A stretch of 62,831 bases of DNA, filler included, from Fonticula-like sp. SCN 57-25 (GCA_001724245.1; 8 parts of 8 records of this genome joined end to end with filler, not necessarily neighbours in it); one strand, 5' to 3'; shown: positions 10,457 through 37,810, numbered from the whole stretch's first letter. A program made the numbers and translations. The notes: a model not told the origin generated them from the sequence alone.

Positions 10457-10892
10457 GGTCACTTTGTTCGCTTCGTGGTCTTGTCTCGTTTGTTGAAATC
10501 TGTAGCTACATGGCTAGGTAGTGCGCCGATGCCGCTGACTGTTTAGGCGTTATATGCTTTGTGAGAAACGCAGTGGGATCACTGCTGTGACATAATATAT
10601 TTATACCAGCTCATTTAACGGGTCTCGCTGATGGGGTAGGGGTGACGTTGCCACCAGGTCCAACGATACCTGAATGTTACACGAAAGAAAAGCGGACCAC
10701 CGCACATCACCAGCAAATAACCAACATGATTTGGTTGTAGTGAGCCCTTTCTTTGTTGCTCTGGTGTGTGATATGTGCGCTCTCGTGCTCTCATTTGCGT
10801 TGCACCTTGGTCTTTGGTCTCTCTAGTTCCTCTTCTGATTATCTTCTGATTCGACTGATTTGACTGATTGGACCGAACCCACCGCAGCCAAG

Positions 10893-11282
10893 ATGGACGC
10901 AATCACAAAGTACATTGTGTCCAGCAAGGTCAAGTCCATGACCGGAGCCATGGGCTTTGACGACGACGAGGACGAGGAGGAGCAGCAGAAGAAGGAGCAG
11001 TCCAGAACGGTACGCCTCTTTCCTAGTGGGGAAAACCCTAGTTTGACGCGCTTGCCACAGCAAACGAAGGAGGAGATTGAGCGCGACCGCATCGCCGCGG
11101 AGCAGGCGGAGGCGAAGCGCCGCGAAAAGCACGAGGCGCGCCGCGAGGAGATGAAGAAGAAGCACGACGAGCTTCGCGACCGCTATAACCTCAAGGGCGC
11201 CCCTGGAACGACAAAGTACGCCGCGACACCCGGCAGTCCGACAACGCCAAAGGAGGAGGACAAGAACTGCGTCATTTTTTGA
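10893..11282 (+). CDS. Complexin-like protein (112 aa) with C-terminal CaaX box, 2 exons
   Basis: N-terminal MDAITKYIVSSKVKSMTGAMG, acidic linker, accessory/central helix ending ELRDRYNLK (cf. complexin IRDKYGIK/FRDKYRL), C-terminal CVIF. In-frame 51-nt intron 11010-11060. Confidence 0.78.
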   Translation: MDAITKYIVSSKVKSMTGAMGFDDDEDEEEQQKKEQSRTVRLFPSGENPSLTRLPQQTKEEIERDRIAAEQAEAKRREKHEARREEMKKKHDELRDRYNLKGAPGTTKYAATPGSPTTPKEEDKNCVIF

Positions 11283-20569: not shown

Positions 20570-22682
20570 TCAAGAAAAGACTATTTGATTCCCAATAGGA
20601 ATTGATCCTGTCCATGAGACCATCCACGTGGCCTTGTCACTGTCAGTTTCGTTTCGCTTTGCCTTGACAAGGTTGATAAACTTGACTGCATCTGGTACCT
20701 TGAGTGCTCCTTTGCCTGCTTCAATGACACGTGGCGGCGAAAGTGAACAAAGAGCAGCACCATGCCAGCAAGCAGAGGCAAGACAAGTAAAAGGAGCACC
20801 AAGTGACTTGATCCAGTTTGCAGTTTGCTTGTCATCCCATGAAAGAACACAGCCACGTGGCGGGGCAAAGTCTCTCTTGTCGCTAAGCTTGTGGTGCGCA
20901 ATGAACCCACGCAGTTGAAGTGCGGCGGCATCATTGAATGACACACCGTATTCCATCACGTGTTCAACATGGAGCATTGTCAGGGAAACACCGTTAATCT
21001 CCTTTAGGGAAGTTTGCAGTTTGCTCATACCGATGTCACAGAGCCATTCCATAAAGGCGTCACCGCGGACATCCTCTAATCCTGAAACAGATAAGCAATC
21101 TGTCAAGCTGTCAAGTGTCTGCGAGCACATATGAATGATGCCAAGCAAGGCATTGTGACGCTCCATCAGTTTTGTAAAATCACGTGACTGAGCAATATAC
21201 TCGGGAGTTTGCAGTTTTGAAAGTGCCTTTTTCTCGATCGCCACTGCCAAGACATTGTTAGTATTTGGCCACGTGATACTCAGTTCGCACATTTGGCCTC
21301 GAGGTCAGCAATGGATCGCTTCAGTTCCTGCTCACGTGACATACGCTGACGTAATCCTTTGTCTGCCTTTTCAAGCGATGCTTCAATCTCCTTCACTTGT
21401 GCCTCCGCCTCTGCCAGACGCTCGCGGACGCACACGTGGGCAGGAAGAGTCACTTGAGGGGCAGCGGAAAATGCAATATAAGGATCAGTTTGCCACAATT
21501 CAACTTGACCACGATCAAAACCAACAGTAATGTTGCCAGACGCAGCGTGGTACGACAATGATAACACCTGCATAGCAAAATGGGTGAGCAATATAAATAG
21601 ACAAAGCATGACACACCTGTCCACCACATTTATAGTTTGCAGTTTGCACTCCATCAGAGGTGCGCCAAATCTGAAGTGATTGATCATATGACCCAGTGAT
21701 CACGTGTGACTCGTCACCGAGAGAGGCGCCGCCGAAGACATGACTCGCGTGTCCCTTAAACATCACGTGAGGAGTGGATGGCCACGTGGTTCCATTTGGA
21801 ACACTCCAGATGGAAGCAGTCTTGTCGTGACTTGTGACCAATAGCATGCGGCCAGAGGGACTGAAGCAGAGTGAATTGATCTAGTATCAATTAGTAATGA
21901 GAATAAAAAGAAATGTATCATACAGTAGCAGAGTGATGCTTGTTGTATGATACTTGCGCCCACTTGACCTTGGGTGATTTAAAAATGTACACGTGGCCAT
22001 CACCACATCCCGCCGTAAGGATATTCCCGTCGGGTGAAAAGGCAACACTCCACACCTGACACTTTCGTGTGAGCAACAGCAAGTAATCATTCACAAACGC
22101 ACATAACTTAACAATCCAGTCAATGTTTGAATGACAGCATAGTTCTTTGATGGATCCAAGAGTGTCACTGCTTTGTCTTCTCCACCGACAGCAAGGATCC
22201 CACTGGGACTGAATGTGCATCCATACAACTAGACAAGGGGTGAGCAAAGAAAGAGCGCCAAAAATTGATGCATACAGGTTTGTTGATCTTGTACACCGTC
22301 GTGACCGTCGAGTGCGCATTGTTGTTTGTGACTTGGATGACACTGCCACTCCATGTCACGGCGACAAGACGCGTCCCGTCGGGCGACCACGCGACATCCC
22401 GCAACTTATTGTTGTGGTGTCAGAACAAAGAAGGACAAATGGGCACGTACACCACCACTATCACAATCCGCAGTGTACACTTTTTCCTGCGTGGCAATAT
22501 TGGTGATGCAGAGTGACTTGTCATCACTGCTAGTTGCCACCAAAGTGCCGTCGAGGGAAATCGCACACGCTCTCACCTGCAAACACAAGCAGCATCAGAC
22601 CAGCAGCACGTCAAAAGCAAGAAAGTCGTACTCGCTCTGTGTGCGGTGTAATAGTCGCCTTCTTGACCAGTTGATGCGCCAT
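20570..22682 (-). CDS. WD40-repeat + coiled-coil + tandem SAM-like domain protein
   Basis: VATSSDDKSL, DVAWSPDG, SVAFSPDG, TSHDKTASIW, FKGH...TGSYDQSLQIW; coiled coil ERLAEAEAQVKEIEASLE; SAM-like EWLCDIGM...INGVSLTML and SWDDKQTANWIKSLG...HGAALCSL. Confidence 0.8.
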
Positions 22683-23369
22683 TGCGTCCACCACTCTTCT
22701 CTCTTTCCCTTTCTACAACCTCAACAGCGGCCAACTCGCGATGCGCGCGCGGCGCGGGAAAACAAACGAACGGTCCTGTAAAGTCGGCCACGTGGGTGTG
22801 TAATTATGGTCACGTGATCCGATCCATTGAAGTCAAGTGTCGAGTCAGCATCCCAGCTGAGTCGACACTTGAGTCGACACAAGTCGACAGTGGCAGAGGG
22901 CAGGCGTGGTCTGATGAAGGTCATATGGGATGCCATTGGAAAGGCATCATTGTGCGGTCAACTTGTCTTTCATTCACTGCTTACACACGTGGTTGTTGTG
23001 GTGATTTGTCGGTGATTTGCGTTCCGGGATGCCCAGCAGCATGCCATCGCGCGCGCATGCCGTCGGTGCCCGCTCGTGATCGCCGTCGCTCGGGGCATCA
23101 CTGAGACCCGCACAAGGAATGGCCACCACTTTCATGTGATGCCGTGCACAAACTGGCAGGGGCGGCAGTCAGATCCGCTTTCGATTCTGCTAGCCAAAAG
23201 GGAGAGCAGTGAATCCATGGTGCTGATCGTAATCCATGGGCACAATAGACTATTATGCTACTTTGAGAAGTGGTAAGGAAAGACAACATTCATTAAAAAG
23301 GAAACAGAATTGCAAAAGTCACATGTTCATAAGGAGAGAAACACAGCACAGTGATAAATCTAATATTAT

Positions 23370-23547
23370 TTAGGCCTGATTGTCAATAGGGGTCGTTCCA
23401 CTCCACTTTGACACCCACGTGGCCTTGTCGCCATCCGTTTCATTTCGCATTTGTCGCACCAGTCCAATGAACTTGACTGCATCAGATACCTTGAGTGCTC
23501 CCTTGGATGCTTCAATGACACGTGGCGGCGAAAGTGAGCATAAGGCG
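23370..23547 (-). CDS. 3' end of a tandem paralog of the WD40-SAM gene, truncated by contig end
   Basis: ALCSLSPPRVIEASKGALKVSDAVKFIGLVRQMRNETDGDKATWVSKWSGTTPIDNQA-stop aligns with the C-terminus encoded at 20570-20760. Confidence 0.85.
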
Positions 23548-23647
23548 NNNNNNNNNNNNNNNNNNNNNNNNNNNNNNNNNNNNNNNNNNNNTTAATTAAT
23601 TAANNNNNNNNNNNNNNNNNNNNNNNNNNNNNNNNNNNNNNNNNNNN

Positions 23648-24797
23648 CACGTGCTTGCGTTTACTTTCGCCTTCCGAAAGCGAAGTTGCGACGGACGAGC
23701 CCGGCTGAGTAATATAAAAACGATCGTCGGCGGTCGCGGTCGGCTCAATTTGGCATTCGTGCTCGTGGCCCCAAAAGACAAGGTCGAGAAAGGAGGGTAG
23801 GAGGTGTTCGGGAATGTAGTTTGTGGGGCCGTGACGTGCTCTAGAGTTATTTTTAGCATGGAAAAAGAGAGGATAAAAGAGTGGAAAGTGTCAAAAAAGA
23901 GTACAAAAGTGTCAAAAAAGAGTCAAAAAAAGAGTCAAAAAAGAGTAAAAGTGTCAAAAAAGTGACAAAAAAGTGTCAAAAAAAAAAGAGTATAAATGTG
24001 CTTAAACATGCTCAAAAAATAGTCCATACCTGTTTTGGTGGATGACAAACATGTTGAAAAAAGAGTGTTCGTTTGTTGACGGCGTGGCAAAGTGCACGCG
24101 GCCGTTTCGGAACGTGCGGTGAAGTCGCTCGTCGCGCACATTGCCGAGGCCATAGACGGCCACGTGCGTGGCGCCTTTGCGGAGAAGCACGGGCGACACG
24201 GTGATGTCGTCGACCTGGCGGGCCTTGCCAAAGTAGTTGACCATGCCGGCGACGCTCAGCAGATCGAGCGCGCACAGGCCATCATTCTAGATCAAGATCA
24301 GCGGGAAAAGATCCAAGGAAAAAAAGGGGCGCACGCCGGCGGGATCGTCGTGGTTGCCGTGGATGCTAAAGCACGGGATGGACACGTTGAGGTTGGGGTC
24401 CTCGTAGTTGACGTTGCCGAATGTGTTGGTGAGAAAGTTGACGGCGGGATCGCTGAGAAGCTGGAGGGCGCAGGGGCGATCGCCAAAGCAGTAGCGGCGG
24501 AGGAGCTCCATCGTGTTGTAGAGGGTGCGGCGAGAGGGTTTGTTTTCGTGGAAGAGGTCGCCGCCGAGAAGGATCATGTCGACCTTGTGCTCGACGCTGA
24601 GCTGGAGAATCTCTTCGAATGAGGCGAAGGAATCTTTCCCGCGCACGGGATCCTCTTCAAGGTACCCAATGTGATTGTCGGTGGCTGGAAAAAAAAGCAT
24701 GGAATAAGCAAGAGAAAAGAACAAACTGCACAAAAATGCGCGTACTGATCATAATGCGGAGCACGTCGCTCTCGTCGTGGTTTCCTAGCGACGCCAT
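23648..24797 (-). CDS. MRE11: Double-strand break repair nuclease MRE11, 5' part
   Basis: [75 protein letters not shown]. Confidence 0.97.
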
Positions 24798-33809: not shown

Positions 33810-34603
33810 CCCCGTCCGTTCACTTCGGCGACGATTGTGTTCGTTTGGTTTTGCGGCGGGAAATCTCCCCCAGTCCACCCCAGACTCTGCTCCCGCTATC
33901 GACCAATCAGCAATTCCGACGCAACAAATCGGCCATAAAAGTCACGTGACATTGGTGTGTTTTGATTGGCTAACCAGTCAAAGCCCAATTTTCACGCGAT
34001 TTGGTCCAGGCACCTAACCTACCCAAACCTACCAAAACGTACCAAGACGGACGCAAACCGACTTGCGTATCGGTTGATCGGCTGCCCGCGAAATTGTGGA
34101 AGTGACGGCCAAGAGCAGTTTTTTCCACCCCGGGACTTTCTACAACATCTGACCGTCAGGCGCCGCTCTCTTTTCCCAGCAGACGACGTCGGCAGTGCAG
34201 AAAAACACGCTTTAAAGAAGCAGAGCGCAGTATTTGCGTAGGCGACCGCGATTGTCGAGTTTTTTTGGGGAGGGTACGCACCACGTCATAGGTTGCGGGG
34301 GGATCGGGCGTGTTGTGGCGATGGGGTTGGCGGAAAGGGATGCGGCTGGGTGGACCGCGGGGATAGCCTTGTATCGTTGTGGCTTGCTGGTTAATATGGG
34401 CTTGTGCGGATATTTTATATCATTTGCATTGTTTTATACTAATCTTGGTCAATTCTGCAGCTCTGTTGGTGCGTTTTTCCTACCAGAATCGCTGGTGGTA
34501 TTGGCGATCCGAGGCAGATCCTTGCCGCCCTCTCTTCCTTTCGAGTGTGGCGCGTCCGTTATCGGTGCTCCACTGAACCAGAGAGCGCCGCTATCCCTGT
34601 GTG

Positions 34604-37600
34604 ATGGCATACGTGCTTAACGGTGTCCAATCGAGCAGTACTAGGAATAATAGCAGCGGCGGCGGAGTTGGCGCAGTAGGTAGCCAATTTACGCCCGCGC
34701 ACTCGCTTCTCAAAGTCGAGCAACCCTTTTCTTCTTCTCTTTCTCCCGCTACAGTCTTTGGTGATCTTGCATTGGTCCCCGAGTCGCCCGACGACGCCTT
34801 GTCGCCGCACTCGTCGCCGTACCTCTCCGACTCGAGCCCACTAGCGCATCTCGAGGAGGGCGACATGGCCACGGGCAGCTCCGGCTCGGGCGCCGACGCC
34901 GCGTTCCGCTTTGACGGCGCGTCACCAAACATTTTTACGCCGAGCGAGCAGCGCTACTTTAGCGACTTTCTCGATCAGCTGGCTAACAACGACGAGGCGC
35001 GCGTGATGCCCGCCTTGGACGGCACCTTTCTGCACCCCATGGGCCAGATGAGCGGCACCTCGCCGTTCCGCATGCCGCAGGCAGACATTTCGACCGCGCA
35101 GCACACGGCTTACGACGACCGCAGCGGCAGCCAGTTTGACCTCCACATGCAGGCGCACTGGCAGCAGCAGCAGCAACAGCAACAGCAGCTTCTCCAGCAG
35201 CAGCAGCACCTGCAGCGCCACGCGGCGCCGCCGTCGTCGGTGAACCCCTACGCCATGTCGGACCGCTCCATGCTCGGCACGACGCAAATGTCGCAGGTGT
35301 CGGGGCAGGTCGGCCCAGCGACGCCGGCGCCCAGGAACCAGCGCAGGACACCCGCGCGCGCCCCCGGTGGAGGTGTCAGCAAGGCCGGGCGCGTGCGCTC
35401 GGGCAGCGTCGGCGGGAATGGAACGCCGCCGCTGAACCCCGCGGCAATTGCGTCCGCGGCCGCCGCTGCCGCCGCCGCATCGAATGCCGCCGGCGGGCAG
35501 ACACCGCTCGGTCTCCCCATCCACCCTGTGCTGCAGAGCAATGTAAAGCCATCGCTGGCTCGCGGCGCGCGGCCGCAAAAGATGGAGGACGAGGACGAGG
35601 ATGATGATCTGAGCGACGACGCCCTGCGCAACAGCCAGCGCGAGCTGCTGACCGAGGAGGAGAAGCGCCAGAACCACATCAACTCTGAGAAGAAGCGCCG
35701 CAACAATATCCGCCAGGCCTTCAAGACGATGACGGACATTATCCCGTCGCTCAACGGCACAAATTACAGCAAGGCGACCATCCTCAACAAGGCGAACGAG
35801 TACCTCGTCCACCTCAAGGAGCGCAACAGCGCGCTCAGCTCGGAGGTGTACCGCCTTCGCGAGATGCTCGAGAAGCGCGGGATCGACTCTGCCGGCGCGT
35901 CCGCCGCTCCCGCCGACCCGCACGCGTCCGCCGCCCACAACGCCGCCGCCGTGCCGGCGAGCAGCGGGAGCACGCCCGAGGTGTCGTGGTCGCGCGGCAC
36001 GCCCGCCTTTTCGGACGAGGTCAAGATCTTTGTCGTGTGGTCGTGCTTCCTCATGGCCATGGTGAACCCGATCACGGGCGGCGGCGCGTCGGGCGATGAC
36101 ACTTCGTCGTCCGAGGTCGGCCGCTCGCTGCAGTCTGTCGCTGCGCCGTCGAGCTTTGACGCCGCGTGGCCCCTGCTGTCGGCGTTTGCGTCGTGGTTCT
36201 GGGTGGCCCGCTGGCTGTTTGTCGCGCTTGCGCTGTACATGTCGTTGACGCTCGACTACTTTGTCAAGCCCAACAGCAAGGCGTCGCAGCACGCGCGCGA
36301 GTACCGCCTCAAGGGCGAGAAGGAGCCGTTCTTCCGCCGCGAGCAGTACTTTTTGTCTGCGCTCTCGTCGCTCGGCAGCCCGCTGCCGTCGACCAACGTC
36401 GGCCTTGTGATGAGCCTCGTGTGGCAGGCGTCGCGGCAGCTTCTTCACCTTCTCGTGTTTGGCCGCGTCGTTGAGGCGTTCCTCGTGCGCGTCCGCCGCG
36501 TCGAGCCGTCCGTGTTTGAGCTGGCGCACAACTTTCACGCGCTTGCTCACCAGTACATTTCCTCTGAAGCCGTGCCGCTCAAGGCGTGGGTGAGCCTTCT
36601 TCGCGCGCTCAACCTTGCCGAGTGCACGTCGGCCGACAACAACCCGCTGCTCGCCGAGATCTACTCGTCCATCTCGTTCCAGGTCCAGTTCCACCTGCCC
36701 AACCTGTGGGTCTTCAAGCGTCTGGCGCGCCACTACCGCGCGCGCGCCGACGCGATCCGTGCGCGCGCCGACTGCTCGACCAAGACGCTCGGCTACGTGT
36801 CGATGCACGATGCCTTTGAAAAGATGGCCAAGGGCCACCTGACCGAGGCGGCCGTCGAGCTGCGCAACGTTGGGCGGCTCTTTATGGACTGTGGCCGCCA
36901 CCGCTCCGCCTGGGAGGTGCTCGTCTTTTACAGCCTCGCGCGCCACATTCGCGGCGAGGCGACCGAAACGCTCAAGGCCGCCGCCGAGATCCGCGACGTC
37001 TTTTCGGTGCACATTCGCGAGATGGCCCGCGGTGACGACGCGGAGAACGGCGACGTTGACCCCGACACGCGCAACATTCTCGTGAGCCAGCTGCTGTGGT
37101 CCGACATGCTGAGCTGCCTCGCGCTGCTCGAGACGCTCGACGTCGGGCAGGCCGCCGCGGTGCACGCGCGCGCCGCCGACCTTGCCAAGATGTGCAGATA
37201 CGACGAGGCAAAGTGGAGCGAGAGCGGGCACCTGCAGCAGGTCGTCTACCACGCGCTCACCACTGCCGTCCGCGGGCGGCAGGGCGACACCAAGCAGATG
37301 CTGGCCGAGGCGACCGAGGCGATCAAGCTGTTTGACAATGTGCAGCAGCCAATGTTCTTTGGCGTGTCGTACCTCGCGTACGTCCTCGTCGCCGACGCGC
37401 TCGTCGAGGCGTGGCTGCGCGCCGTCGACACGGCCGACACGGACGACGTGCCCACCATCGCCGCCATGCTCGCCGCCGTCTCAAGTCACCTCGCCTCCTT
37501 TACAAGCAACTTTGCGTTTGCCGAGCCGCGCTGCCTCACGGTCGCCGGCGTCGCCGAATGCCTCGCGGCAAAGGACGCCGCCACGACAGAGAGCGGCCGC

Positions 37601-37810
37601 GACAAGCTCAGGCGCGCAGCGGCCGCCGGCATGCGGCTCGACATGCCGCTCGACGCCGCGTACGCCGCCTTCTTTTACGAGCGGTTCAGCGACACGCCAG
37701 AGCTCGAGCAGATCACGCAGGCGAGGAGCGTGTGCCACAAATTGGGCGCAGAGCACAAGGCAAACGTCATCGAGCTCTATCTGCACACCAACTTTGGCAA
37801 GCGCTTCTAA
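34604..37810 (+). CDS. SREBP-like membrane-bound bHLH-ZIP transcription factor (start uncertain)
   Basis: bHLH KRQNHINSEKKRRNNIR...SKATILNKANEYL; TM1 ending MVNPI; luminal GRSLQ; TM2; SREBP-type C-terminal motifs RQLLHLLVFGR and ALNLAEC...LAEIY. Confidence 0.8.
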   Translation: MAYVLNGVQSSSTRNNSSGGGVGAVGSQFTPAHSLLKVEQPFSSSLSPATVFGDLALVPESPDDALSPHSSPYLSDSSPLAHLEEGDMATGSSGSGADAAFRFDGASPNIFTPSEQRYFSDFLDQLANNDEARVMPALDGTFLHPMGQMSGTSPFRMPQADISTAQHTAYDDRSGSQFDLHMQAHWQQQQQQQQQLLQQQQHLQRHAAPPSSVNPYAMSDRSMLGTTQMSQVSGQVGPATPAPRNQRRTPARAPGGGVSKAGRVRSGSVGGNGTPPLNPAAIASAAAAAAAASNAAGGQTPLGLPIHPVLQSNVKPSLARGARPQKMEDEDEDDDLSDDALRNSQRELLTEEEKRQNHINSEKKRRNNIRQAFKTMTDIIPSLNGTNYSKATILNKANEYLVHLKERNSALSSEVYRLREMLEKRGIDSAGASAAPADPHASAAHNAAAVPASSGSTPEVSWSRGTPAFSDEVKIFVVWSCFLMAMVNPITGGGASGDDTSSSEVGRSLQSVAAPSSFDAAWPLLSAFASWFWVARWLFVALALYMSLTLDYFVKPNSKASQHAREYRLKGEKEPFFRREQYFLSALSSLGSPLPSTNVGLVMSLVWQASRQLLHLLVFGRVVEAFLVRVRRVEPSVFELAHNFHALAHQYISSEAVPLKAWVSLLRALNLAECTSADNNPLLAEIYSSISFQVQFHLPNLWVFKRLARHYRARADAIRARADCSTKTLGYVSMHDAFEKMAKGHLTEAAVELRNVGRLFMDCGRHRSAWEVLVFYSLARHIRGEATETLKAAAEIRDVFSVHIREMARGDDAENGDVDPDTRNILVSQLLWSDMLSCLALLETLDVGQAAAVHARAADLAKMCRYDEAKWSESGHLQQVVYHALTTAVRGRQGDTKQMLAEATEAIKLFDNVQQPMFFGVSYLAYVLVADALVEAWLRAVDTADTDDVPTIAAMLAAVSSHLASFTSNFAFAEPRCLTVAGVAECLAAKDAATTESGRDKLRRAAAAGMRLDMPLDAAYAAFFYERFSDTPELEQITQARSVCHKLGAEHKANVIELYLHTNFGKRF

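Follow-up and report, generated by a model that had tools for sequence, protein, structure and literature searches.

SREBPs are the textbook example of a transcription factor that is freed from a membrane by regulated proteolysis. In the animal SREBP-1/2 as in the fungal Sre1/SrbA, an N-terminal activation region is followed by a basic helix-loop-helix (bHLH)-zipper, a two-helix membrane hairpin enclosing a luminal loop of about 30 residues, and a large cytosolic regulatory domain. They are cut by the site-1 protease (S1P) at R-x-hydrophobic-x and by the site-2 protease (S2P) near an NP. A diagnostic Tyr in their basic region, which allows binding to the sterol-response element, is regarded as the hallmark of the family, Arg being found at this position in most bHLH proteins. 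Max and Ino4, by comparison, are small and soluble; they act as partners, Ino4 with Ino2 on inositol/choline-responsive elements, and are not known to carry membrane helices or a tail. A 62,831-nucleotide stretch of DNA from Fonticula-like sp. SCN 57-25 (GCA_001724245.1), called here the window, contains a gene for a protein of 1068 residues, P0001, in which all the SREBP parts are matched in the same order, from the N-terminal activation region to the cytosolic domain. In contrast to Max and Ino4, it has a membrane hairpin and a tail; in contrast to SREBPs, it has Arg365 in place of the Tyr and a bHLH nearer to Max than to SREBP-1a. P0001 apparently belongs to an old and unstudied sister lineage of the SREBPs. 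What is new here is a member of the SREBP superfamily that lacks the Tyr by which the family is defined, and such a protein is not unique to this genome. By analogy with SREBPs, it is probably tethered to the endoplasmic reticulum (ER), and would be cut loose as a bHLH-zipper protein that binds E-boxes.

The gene consists of a single exon, read as one uninterrupted frame of 1068 codons plus stop on the plus strand, with its ATG at 34604 directly preceded by an in-frame GTG codon at 34601. Its features are as follows.

34604..37810, plus strand: whole gene for P0001, an unbroken open reading frame (ORF) in the raw DNA that aligns to P0002.
34931..34993, plus strand: N-terminal conserved acidic/aromatic patch, residues 110-130, containing TPSEQRYFSDFLDQL at 112-126; matched in P0071.
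35663..35815, plus strand: bHLH domain, residues 354-404, matched by Pfam HLH, by Pfam bHLH_INO4 and by Max.
35675..35701, plus strand: basic region H358-x3-E362-x3-R366, with R365 at the SREBP Tyr position, as read from the sequence.
35804..35878, plus strand: short leucine zipper L404, L411, L418, flanked by L401, N408, V415 and L422, from heptad spacing and homodimer model contacts.
36020..36076, plus strand: predicted membrane helix 1, residues 473-491, with K474 before and N488-P489 at the end.
36122..36133, plus strand: R507-S-L-Q510, candidate site-1-type motif in a luminal loop of about 31 residues (492-522), from the 31-row alignment.
36173..36253, plus strand: predicted membrane helix 2, residues 524-550.
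36269..37807, plus strand: cytosolic regulatory domain, residues 556-1068, predicted as an all-helical TPR-like solenoid (hhalign, AlphaFold2, Foldseek).
36422..36466, plus strand: family signature W-Q-x-x-R-Q-x-x-H-x-x-x-x-G, residues 607-621, from the 31-row alignment.

An earlier note had proposed, from this DNA alone, an SREBP-type membrane-tethered factor with an Arg-type, Ino2/Mlx-like bHLH. All the strings it quoted are present in P0001: TPSEQRYFSDFLDQL, SEKKRR (361-366), N488-P489 (within FLMAMVNPI), RSLQ (507-510), RQLLHLLVFGR (611-621), ALNLAEC at 668 and LAEIY at 683. The N-terminal region is long and of low complexity, with one conserved acidic patch, which is a possible activation motif. 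This patch is also found in P0071, a fragment from Olpidium bornovanus (9 of 21 residues identical, E 0.002, in one pairwise comparison), and the pairwise alignment with P0002 gave no counterpart of it.

The open frame could be taken for an artefact, in which the assembly or the gene model has fused a bHLH gene to a separate gene for a membrane protein, or for a relic that no longer functions. Three relatives, P0007, P0004 and P0041, indeed begin at the first membrane helix without a bHLH, most of them looking like fragments. Such an explanation is scarcely credible. The frame is unbroken in the raw DNA, P0002 is collinear with P0001 over residues 333-1057 (37% identity in a pairwise alignment, without intron-like breaks), the same fused order recurs in seven other proteins from different sources, and the tail is modelled by AlphaFold2 with high confidence. 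Antisense to the gene lies a 776-codon open frame (34922-37252, minus strand), in a region where the window has 62-63% GC. Such an antisense frame is expected, since the coding DNA is GC-rich, and homology backs the sense frame.

Judged by its residues, the DNA-reading head is a canonical E-box one of the His-Glu-Arg kind, in which the Tyr of SREBPs is replaced by Arg. Residues 354-404 match Pfam HLH (E 4.4e-10, 39.7 bits), and the basic region, E362-K-K-R365-R366, departs from the E-x-x-Y-R of SREBPs at residue 365, as had been rightly noticed before. By an eye count, H-x3-E-x3-R is kept in 14 of the 15 Arg-type rows of the bHLH alignment and E-x-x-Y-R in all 19 Tyr-type rows. Max, which has the same His-Glu-Arg reading residues and the same short loop, is the best match among solved structures (E 1.1e-9, residues 346-416), before Myc (9.5e-6), Ino4 (1.4e-4) and SREBP-1a (0.22). 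With a profile of seven Arg-type bHLHs, Max again comes first (65.7 bits), followed by Myc (49.4), USF2 (42.4), Hms1 (40.4), Cbf1 (39.7), SREBP-1a (36.7), Ino4 (34.4) and Ino2 (21.3). When residues 346-426 are compared with the proteins collected here, the Max-like P0070 is the best match outside the family (44.7 bits), the Mondo-like P0069 scores 37.6 bits and any Tyr-type SREBP at most 29.5; the placement of P0070 is left unsettled by the bHLH tree.

The likeness to Ino2, Ino4 or Mlx that had been put forward holds in part. Pfam bHLH_INO4 (PF23181) matches P0001 marginally, with 27.8 bits for a cut-off of 27.5, below the score of the general HLH model; two close relatives reach 31.8 and 35.5 bits, and the Max-, Mondo- and Mlx-like comparators 16.5, 16.7 and 13.8. 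The signal for Ino2 is weak (15.8 bits with the Pfam INO2 model, under its cut-off of 23.4), and the closest solved structure is Max, rather than Ino2, Ino4 or Mlx. For the relative P0060, the ranking of solved bHLHs likewise places Max first and Ino4 second (32.9 bits). One study argues that Ino4 and Max are possible counterparts (PMC11739200), a view that would reconcile the Max and Ino4 signals.

Helix 2 is followed by a three-heptad zipper (L404, L411 and L418, with N408, V415 and L422 alongside). A homodimer model of residues 340-435 obtained a score of 0.73, against 0.02 for the best of three controls, and lies above the mark chosen for such models. For microbes, this mark was reached by 21 of 30 proteins solved as pairs of one chain and by none of 23 solved as single chains. 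For eukaryotes, 17 of 29 such pairs reached it, though no more than one of the seven that have no older solved relative, and none of 30 single chains did. Contacts agreed between runs at 92% or more, the predicted local distance difference test (pLDDT) of the partner was at least 82, and the lowest-error contacts fall on L404, L411, L418 and V415. This result may reflect likeness only, because bHLH-zipper dimers such as Max have been solved. By analogy with such proteins, binding to E-box-type sites as a dimer is quite likely, and the target predicted from the reading residues would be an E-box, not the sterol-response element of SREBPs.

The hairpin could be recognised at several levels. Kyte-Doolittle hydropathy over 19-residue windows peaks at 473-491 (1.68) and 524-550 (1.64), and the AlphaFold2 model has helices at 471-486 and 517-549, with a stretch of low confidence (about 490-513) in the loop that separates them. 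The sole further peak of at least 1.6, at 916-934, lies within the confidently folded helical tail. Two membrane helices separated by a short luminal loop are therefore predicted after the bHLH-zipper, as in SREBPs, and R507-S-L-Q and N488-P489 are both present, as motifs rather than as evidence of cleavage. A family alignment of 31 rows, which starts just before the first membrane helix, gives the conservation of these features. Thirty rows retain the loop Arg, the other one being gapped, and L, I or V stands two residues later in all 31. Of the 29 rows with sequence before and after the loop Arg, 28 show a hydrophobic peak on either side of it. A basic residue precedes helix 1 in 28 of the 31 rows, Pro is found at the end of this helix in 23, and Asn before that Pro in 16. 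Further downstream, the Gly of L-G-x-P-x-P (residues 590-595 of P0001, just before the signature at 607-621) is kept in 28 rows, and the R, Q, H and G of R-Q-x-x-H-x-x-x-x-G in 26, 28, 29 and 29, respectively. P0001 and SREBPs have in common L-G-x-P-x-P, R-Q-x-x-H, the Arg motif of the loop, and a Pro or Asn-Pro where helix 1 ends. These hairpin and motif features are not due to chance, since the architecture recurs in relatives and the motifs quoted in the earlier note fall on the most conserved columns.

The C-terminal 600 residues have no Pfam match. The tail was therefore searched by phmmer with residues 460-1068 against 1.84 billion representative proteins; since this query is devoid of the bHLH, the latter could not bias the search. 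It returned 56 matches at E <= 1e-3, 13 of which at E <= 1e-10. Among the 34 longer ones that were scanned with Pfam, an HLH domain precedes the matched region in 23, five carry no Pfam family, and the other six are TPR proteins, either plain or with a kinase or cyclase and AAA_16. Fifteen of the 23 HLH-bearing proteins have the E-x-x-Y-R signature of SREBPs, five are of the Arg type (P0008, P0009, P0010, P0024 and P0045), and in the last three the basic region is odd. P0037, a Tyr-type match, corresponds to the solved SREBP-1a with E 1.2e-29, and the Tyr-type matches are therefore real SREBPs. Profiles of the region that follows helix 2 were then aligned by hhalign, ten Arg-type rows against 17 Tyr-type rows, with a result of 99.9% and E 1.2e-34 over 460 columns, to be compared with E 0.14 for the reversed target. 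This alignment spans positions 1-507 of 513, end to end.

The AlphaFold2 model of residues 456-1068, built from a 23-row alignment (mean pLDDT 87.8, predicted template modelling score 0.83), consists of two long helices at the membrane segments, a low-confidence loop, and then a 24-helix solenoid. The matches listed by Foldseek for this model include the TPR superhelices Ctr9, APC5, RapF and MalT domain III. The SREBP architecture that had been claimed for the C-terminal two-thirds of the protein is in this way borne out: the tail finds Tyr-type SREBPs on its own, P0001 has a C-terminal regulatory domain homologous to theirs, and the homology of hairpin and tail to their SREBP counterparts, architecture included, is almost certain.

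Several points nevertheless weigh against this interpretation and against what is built on it. The solved Sre1 tail (5GPD, 5GRS; PMC5099872) is not among the 50 Foldseek matches listed for the tail model, nor was it found by the tail-only sequence profile in the PDB, which returned only weak TPR matches (SRP72, E 0.0018); when a mixed profile of bHLH and tail is used, bHLH matches dominate. Pfam DUF2014, the fungal SREBP tail, has no match in P0001 at E <= 1. According to PMC3894159, DUF2014 is confined to ascomycete SREBPs and the basidiomycete Sre1 is also devoid of it, so that this family is not definitive of SREBPs as a whole. The Tyr-type set was chosen by similarity to the P0001 tail, and the apparent relatedness of the Arg and Tyr types is somewhat inflated because of this choice. 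In the hairpin, N-P is not found throughout the family: its columns read S-T in P0002, the nearest relative of full length, and N-P occurs in three of the ten Arg-type rows, though Pro does in seven. The presumed cut residue is Gln in P0001, and its column is variable, with Q in ten rows, L in eight and other states in the remaining 13. No SCAP, Insig, subtilase or M50 protease gene was found among the ORFs scanned in the window, namely 91 of the 122 stop-to-stop ORFs of at least 130 aa, the others being overlapping frames of genes already identified. Lastly, every mechanistic step rests on analogy, and conserved motifs are not proof of which protease acts, because some fungi free their SREBPs by other machinery.

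An Arg-type bHLH is combined with the hairpin and the tail in seven other proteins: P0002, P0063, P0008, P0009 (CAOG_00228 of Capsaspora owczarzaki), P0010, P0024 and P0045. P0010, P0008 and P0024 bear the EukProt labels 'Opistho-2', 'Nk52' and 'Clim', which probably stand for Pigoraptor, Chromosphaera and Corallochytrium. The Olpidium fragment P0071 came from a bHLH profile search, as did four chytrid proteins, P0074-P0077, which are Tyr-type SREBPs. A near-length search with the whole protein yielded one relative, P0002, the word-index method being insensitive for P0001; a short-length search with the bHLH yielded 10 close fragments, but nothing named that could serve as a comparator. Leads from the ESM Atlas for the tail all scored low, 0.80 at most, and one of them pointed to a 635-aa oomycete cluster (0.76). 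No description of the Arg-type family was found in the literature searched, most subscription journals being outside its coverage, and the same literature gave no mention of CAOG_00228.

Separate phylogenies of the bHLH and of the tail both set the Arg type apart from the Tyr type. The bHLH tree comprises 40 rows and 85 columns, with 19 Tyr-type rows, 15 Arg-type rows and four non-tethered comparators chosen by similarity. All 19 Tyr-type rows form one group (97/97) and all 15 Arg-type rows lie outside it; the clan of P0001, Olpidium included, has a support of 94/92. Three protist Arg-type rows, P0008, P0009 and P0010, join the Mondo-like P0069 and the Mlx-like P0073 (84/71), and the basic region of P0069 resembles theirs, whereas the clan of P0001 does not group with these two comparators. 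Both labels are our reading of the sequences, from known motifs, and no membrane helix is predicted in P0069 or P0073. None of three groupings is rejected by approximately unbiased (AU) tests: all tethered rows together (p 0.173), all Arg-type rows (p 0.317), and the P0001 clan with the Tyr-type rows (p 0.239). P0001 is excluded from the SREBP bHLH group in the tree, though the last of these values keeps a joint grouping.

The tail tree (37 rows, 576 columns) was rooted on four bacterial TPR proteins. It gathers nine of the ten Arg-type rows in one clade (96/98), and 15 Tyr-type rows with two bHLH-less fragments in another (96/96). Four odd-type rows make up a third clade (100/100), beside the Arg-type group; two chytrid SREBPs stand apart on a long branch of their own, and the row of P0045 is both long and unstable. 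The odd-type proteins P0018, P0025, P0033 and P0040 share the hairpin and the tail of the family, together with its loop Arg motif and an N-P or T-P, and the two of them with complete basic regions, P0033 and P0040, have Gln in place of the DNA-contacting Glu. Within the Arg-type tail clade, P0007, P0011 and P0013 start at the first membrane helix without a bHLH; these proteins may truly lack a bHLH, or their gene models may be truncated.

P0001 could be seen as an ordinary SREBP orthologue having undergone a Tyr-to-Arg reversion, given that its hairpin, loop motif and tail are all SREBP-like. This is very improbable, since the differences extend over the whole bHLH, as illustrated by the E-values obtained with SREBP-1a and Max, since the Tyr-type bHLH group excludes P0001, and since its tail belongs to the separate Arg-type clade. 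As far as sequences can tell, head type and tail have diverged together across an old family that includes Capsaspora, other EukProt protists and Olpidium. This effectively rules out a recent chimera as well as a simple reversion, and the undescribed one-off chimera that had first been envisaged has to be abandoned.

An ancient domain swap is another matter. In an early opisthokont, it would have joined a bHLH-zipper of the Max/Ino4/Mondo-Mlx type to a hairpin and a tail taken from a Tyr-type SREBP, which would fit the separation of the Arg-type rows in the bHLH tree, the grouping of three protist rows with Mondo/Mlx-like proteins, and the higher bit score of the P0001 bHLH-zipper with a Max-like protein than with any Tyr-type SREBP. 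Such a swap seems doubtful: the AU tests reject none of the three groupings, the non-tethered comparators are only four and similarity-chosen, and in the bacterial-rooted tail tree the Arg-type (with odd-type) and Tyr-type groups are sisters, neither being nested in the other. Sister tail groups fit a simple divergence with gain of Tyr on one branch, and a Tyr gained once on the SREBP branch is also the simpler story because Arg is usual in bHLH proteins. An ancestral, pre-Tyr SREBP had also been suggested for P0001. The divergence of head and tail in step does not decide between this and a swap, nor do the AU tests on 85 bHLH columns (p 0.17-0.32).

For a tethered, E-box-reading sister of the SREBPs, the following course of events may be proposed. 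The precursor would lie in the ER membrane with its N- and C-terminal ends both cytosolic. A signal read through the tail, or through an escort bound to it, would send the precursor to a compartment that holds the proteases. The first cut would follow the conserved R-x-(L/I/V)-x motif (R507-Q510) in the luminal loop, and the second one would fall inside helix 1, near the helix-breaking N488-P489. The freed fragment, of about 470 residues, would reach the nucleus, dimerise through helix 2 and the zipper, and activate genes with CACGTG-type E-boxes, not those with sterol-response elements. Release by regulated intramembrane proteolysis appears reasonably likely on this analogy; a role in lipid or membrane homeostasis is conceivable, though it would be somewhat surprising.

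With the same family and topology, release could also be ensured by machinery other than the site-1 and site-2 proteases, and would then need no SCAP-like escort. Such machinery could be an E3-ligase complex of the Golgi that acts with a protease of the rhomboid or signal-peptide-peptidase type, as for some ascomycete SREBPs, or else the proteasome, by clipping. Consistent with this are the uneven occurrence of N-P (missing in P0002 and in most Arg-type rows), the lack of a protease or escort gene among the scanned ORFs, and the MalT-like TPR sensor fold of the tail, which could bind its own ligand or partner. Aspergillus SREBPs, moreover, keep their tail despite the loss of SCAP, according to PMC3894159. 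Release of this kind is unlikely here, in view of the near-invariance of the luminal Arg and of the L, I or V that follows it across Arg-, Tyr- and odd-type members: such conservation is hard to explain otherwise than by a luminal, sequence-specific event shared with animal-type SREBPs.

The tail also has a bacterial likeness. In hhalign alignments of some 450 columns to the MalT-like TPR region at the C-terminus of bacterial STAND proteins, the Arg-type tails give E 5.4e-45 and the Tyr-type tails E 9e-38, with E 0.34-0.35 for the reversed controls. The motifs L-G-x-P-x-P and Q-x-x-R-Q-x-L-H-R-L-W are common to STAND TPR sensors and to the family tails, and MalT domain III ranks 28th in the Foldseek search with the P0001 tail model (template modelling score 0.43 by target). 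Bacterial STAND proteins associate a nucleoside triphosphatase (NTPase) with an enzyme domain (cyclase or kinase + AAA_16 + TPR) and have no bHLH, whereas P0001 has no AAA_16 or other NTPase Pfam match; only the TPR-like tail is common to both. Relatives of P0036 occur in seven Chloroflexota loci from metagenome-assembled genomes (L001-L007), among which one full ORF (L002:1124-5368) reads Guanylate_cyc + AAA_16 + TPR_MalT. No report of a link between the SREBP tail and STAND TPR domains was found in the literature searched. The similarity suggests an origin for the poorly understood SREBP tail, which may itself sense something.

A broader proposal, tentative when taken as a whole, is that SREBPs are one branch of a wider and older family of ER-tethered bHLH-zipper proteins, in which the branch of P0001 would have kept the ancestral, E-box-reading Arg. 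The hairpin, the luminal Arg motif and the tail would then predate the switch to Tyr, and the tail would be of bacterial descent, going back to the TPR domain with which STAND proteins sense a ligand or a partner. The small soluble factors of the Ino4 type that higher fungi possess could, on this proposal, have arisen from the tethered lineage by truncation; if so, two classic lipid-regulating bHLH systems would be traced to one membrane-bound ancestor. More generally, a conserved sister lineage with an E-box-reading head would show that the machinery of tethering and release is older and more widely used than binding to the sterol element. It would also offer a natural experiment on what the switch to Tyr has changed, and would mean that early-diverging fungi and the unicellular relatives of animals possess an unstudied membrane-to-nucleus pathway.

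Upstream of the gene, in a divergent intergenic region about 655 bp before the ATG, lies one further feature.

33941..33950, no strand assigned: palindromic E-box GTCACGTGAC (10 bp), a single site.

This E-box is flanked by CCAAT (33903-33907) and by an inverted CCAAT (33965-33969). Self-regulation through it would be speculative, and the site cannot be read in this way, because it is single and CACGTG is enriched across the window (55 occurrences for 21.7 expected, a count reached in none of 100 shuffles). About 23 of the CACGTG sites fall within 3.5 kb, at 20625-24166, and do not form a tandem repeat.

The surrounding DNA is eukaryotic and nuclear, with intron-split neighbour genes. Fourteen runs of 44 N, paired and spaced every 7.85 kb or so between 7788 and 55088, look like masking and not like biology; none lies inside the gene. 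The other genes of the window encode a Sec14-like protein, an M28 peptidase, iPGM, an ABC transporter, TRAPPC10, uL23, a PCI protein, Vps35, eL18, a HECT ligase and Mob1. Compared with solved ribosomes, uL23 scores best with vertebrate chains, then with those of plants and then of fungi, a ranking too coarse to point to a lineage, and Vps35 yielded no usable taxon in the ESM Atlas. One ORF (10839-11279, plus strand), which might help to place the organism, matches Pfam Synaphin (complexin) with E 9.5e-10; it may encode a genuine relative of complexin or only resemble one as a charged coiled coil.

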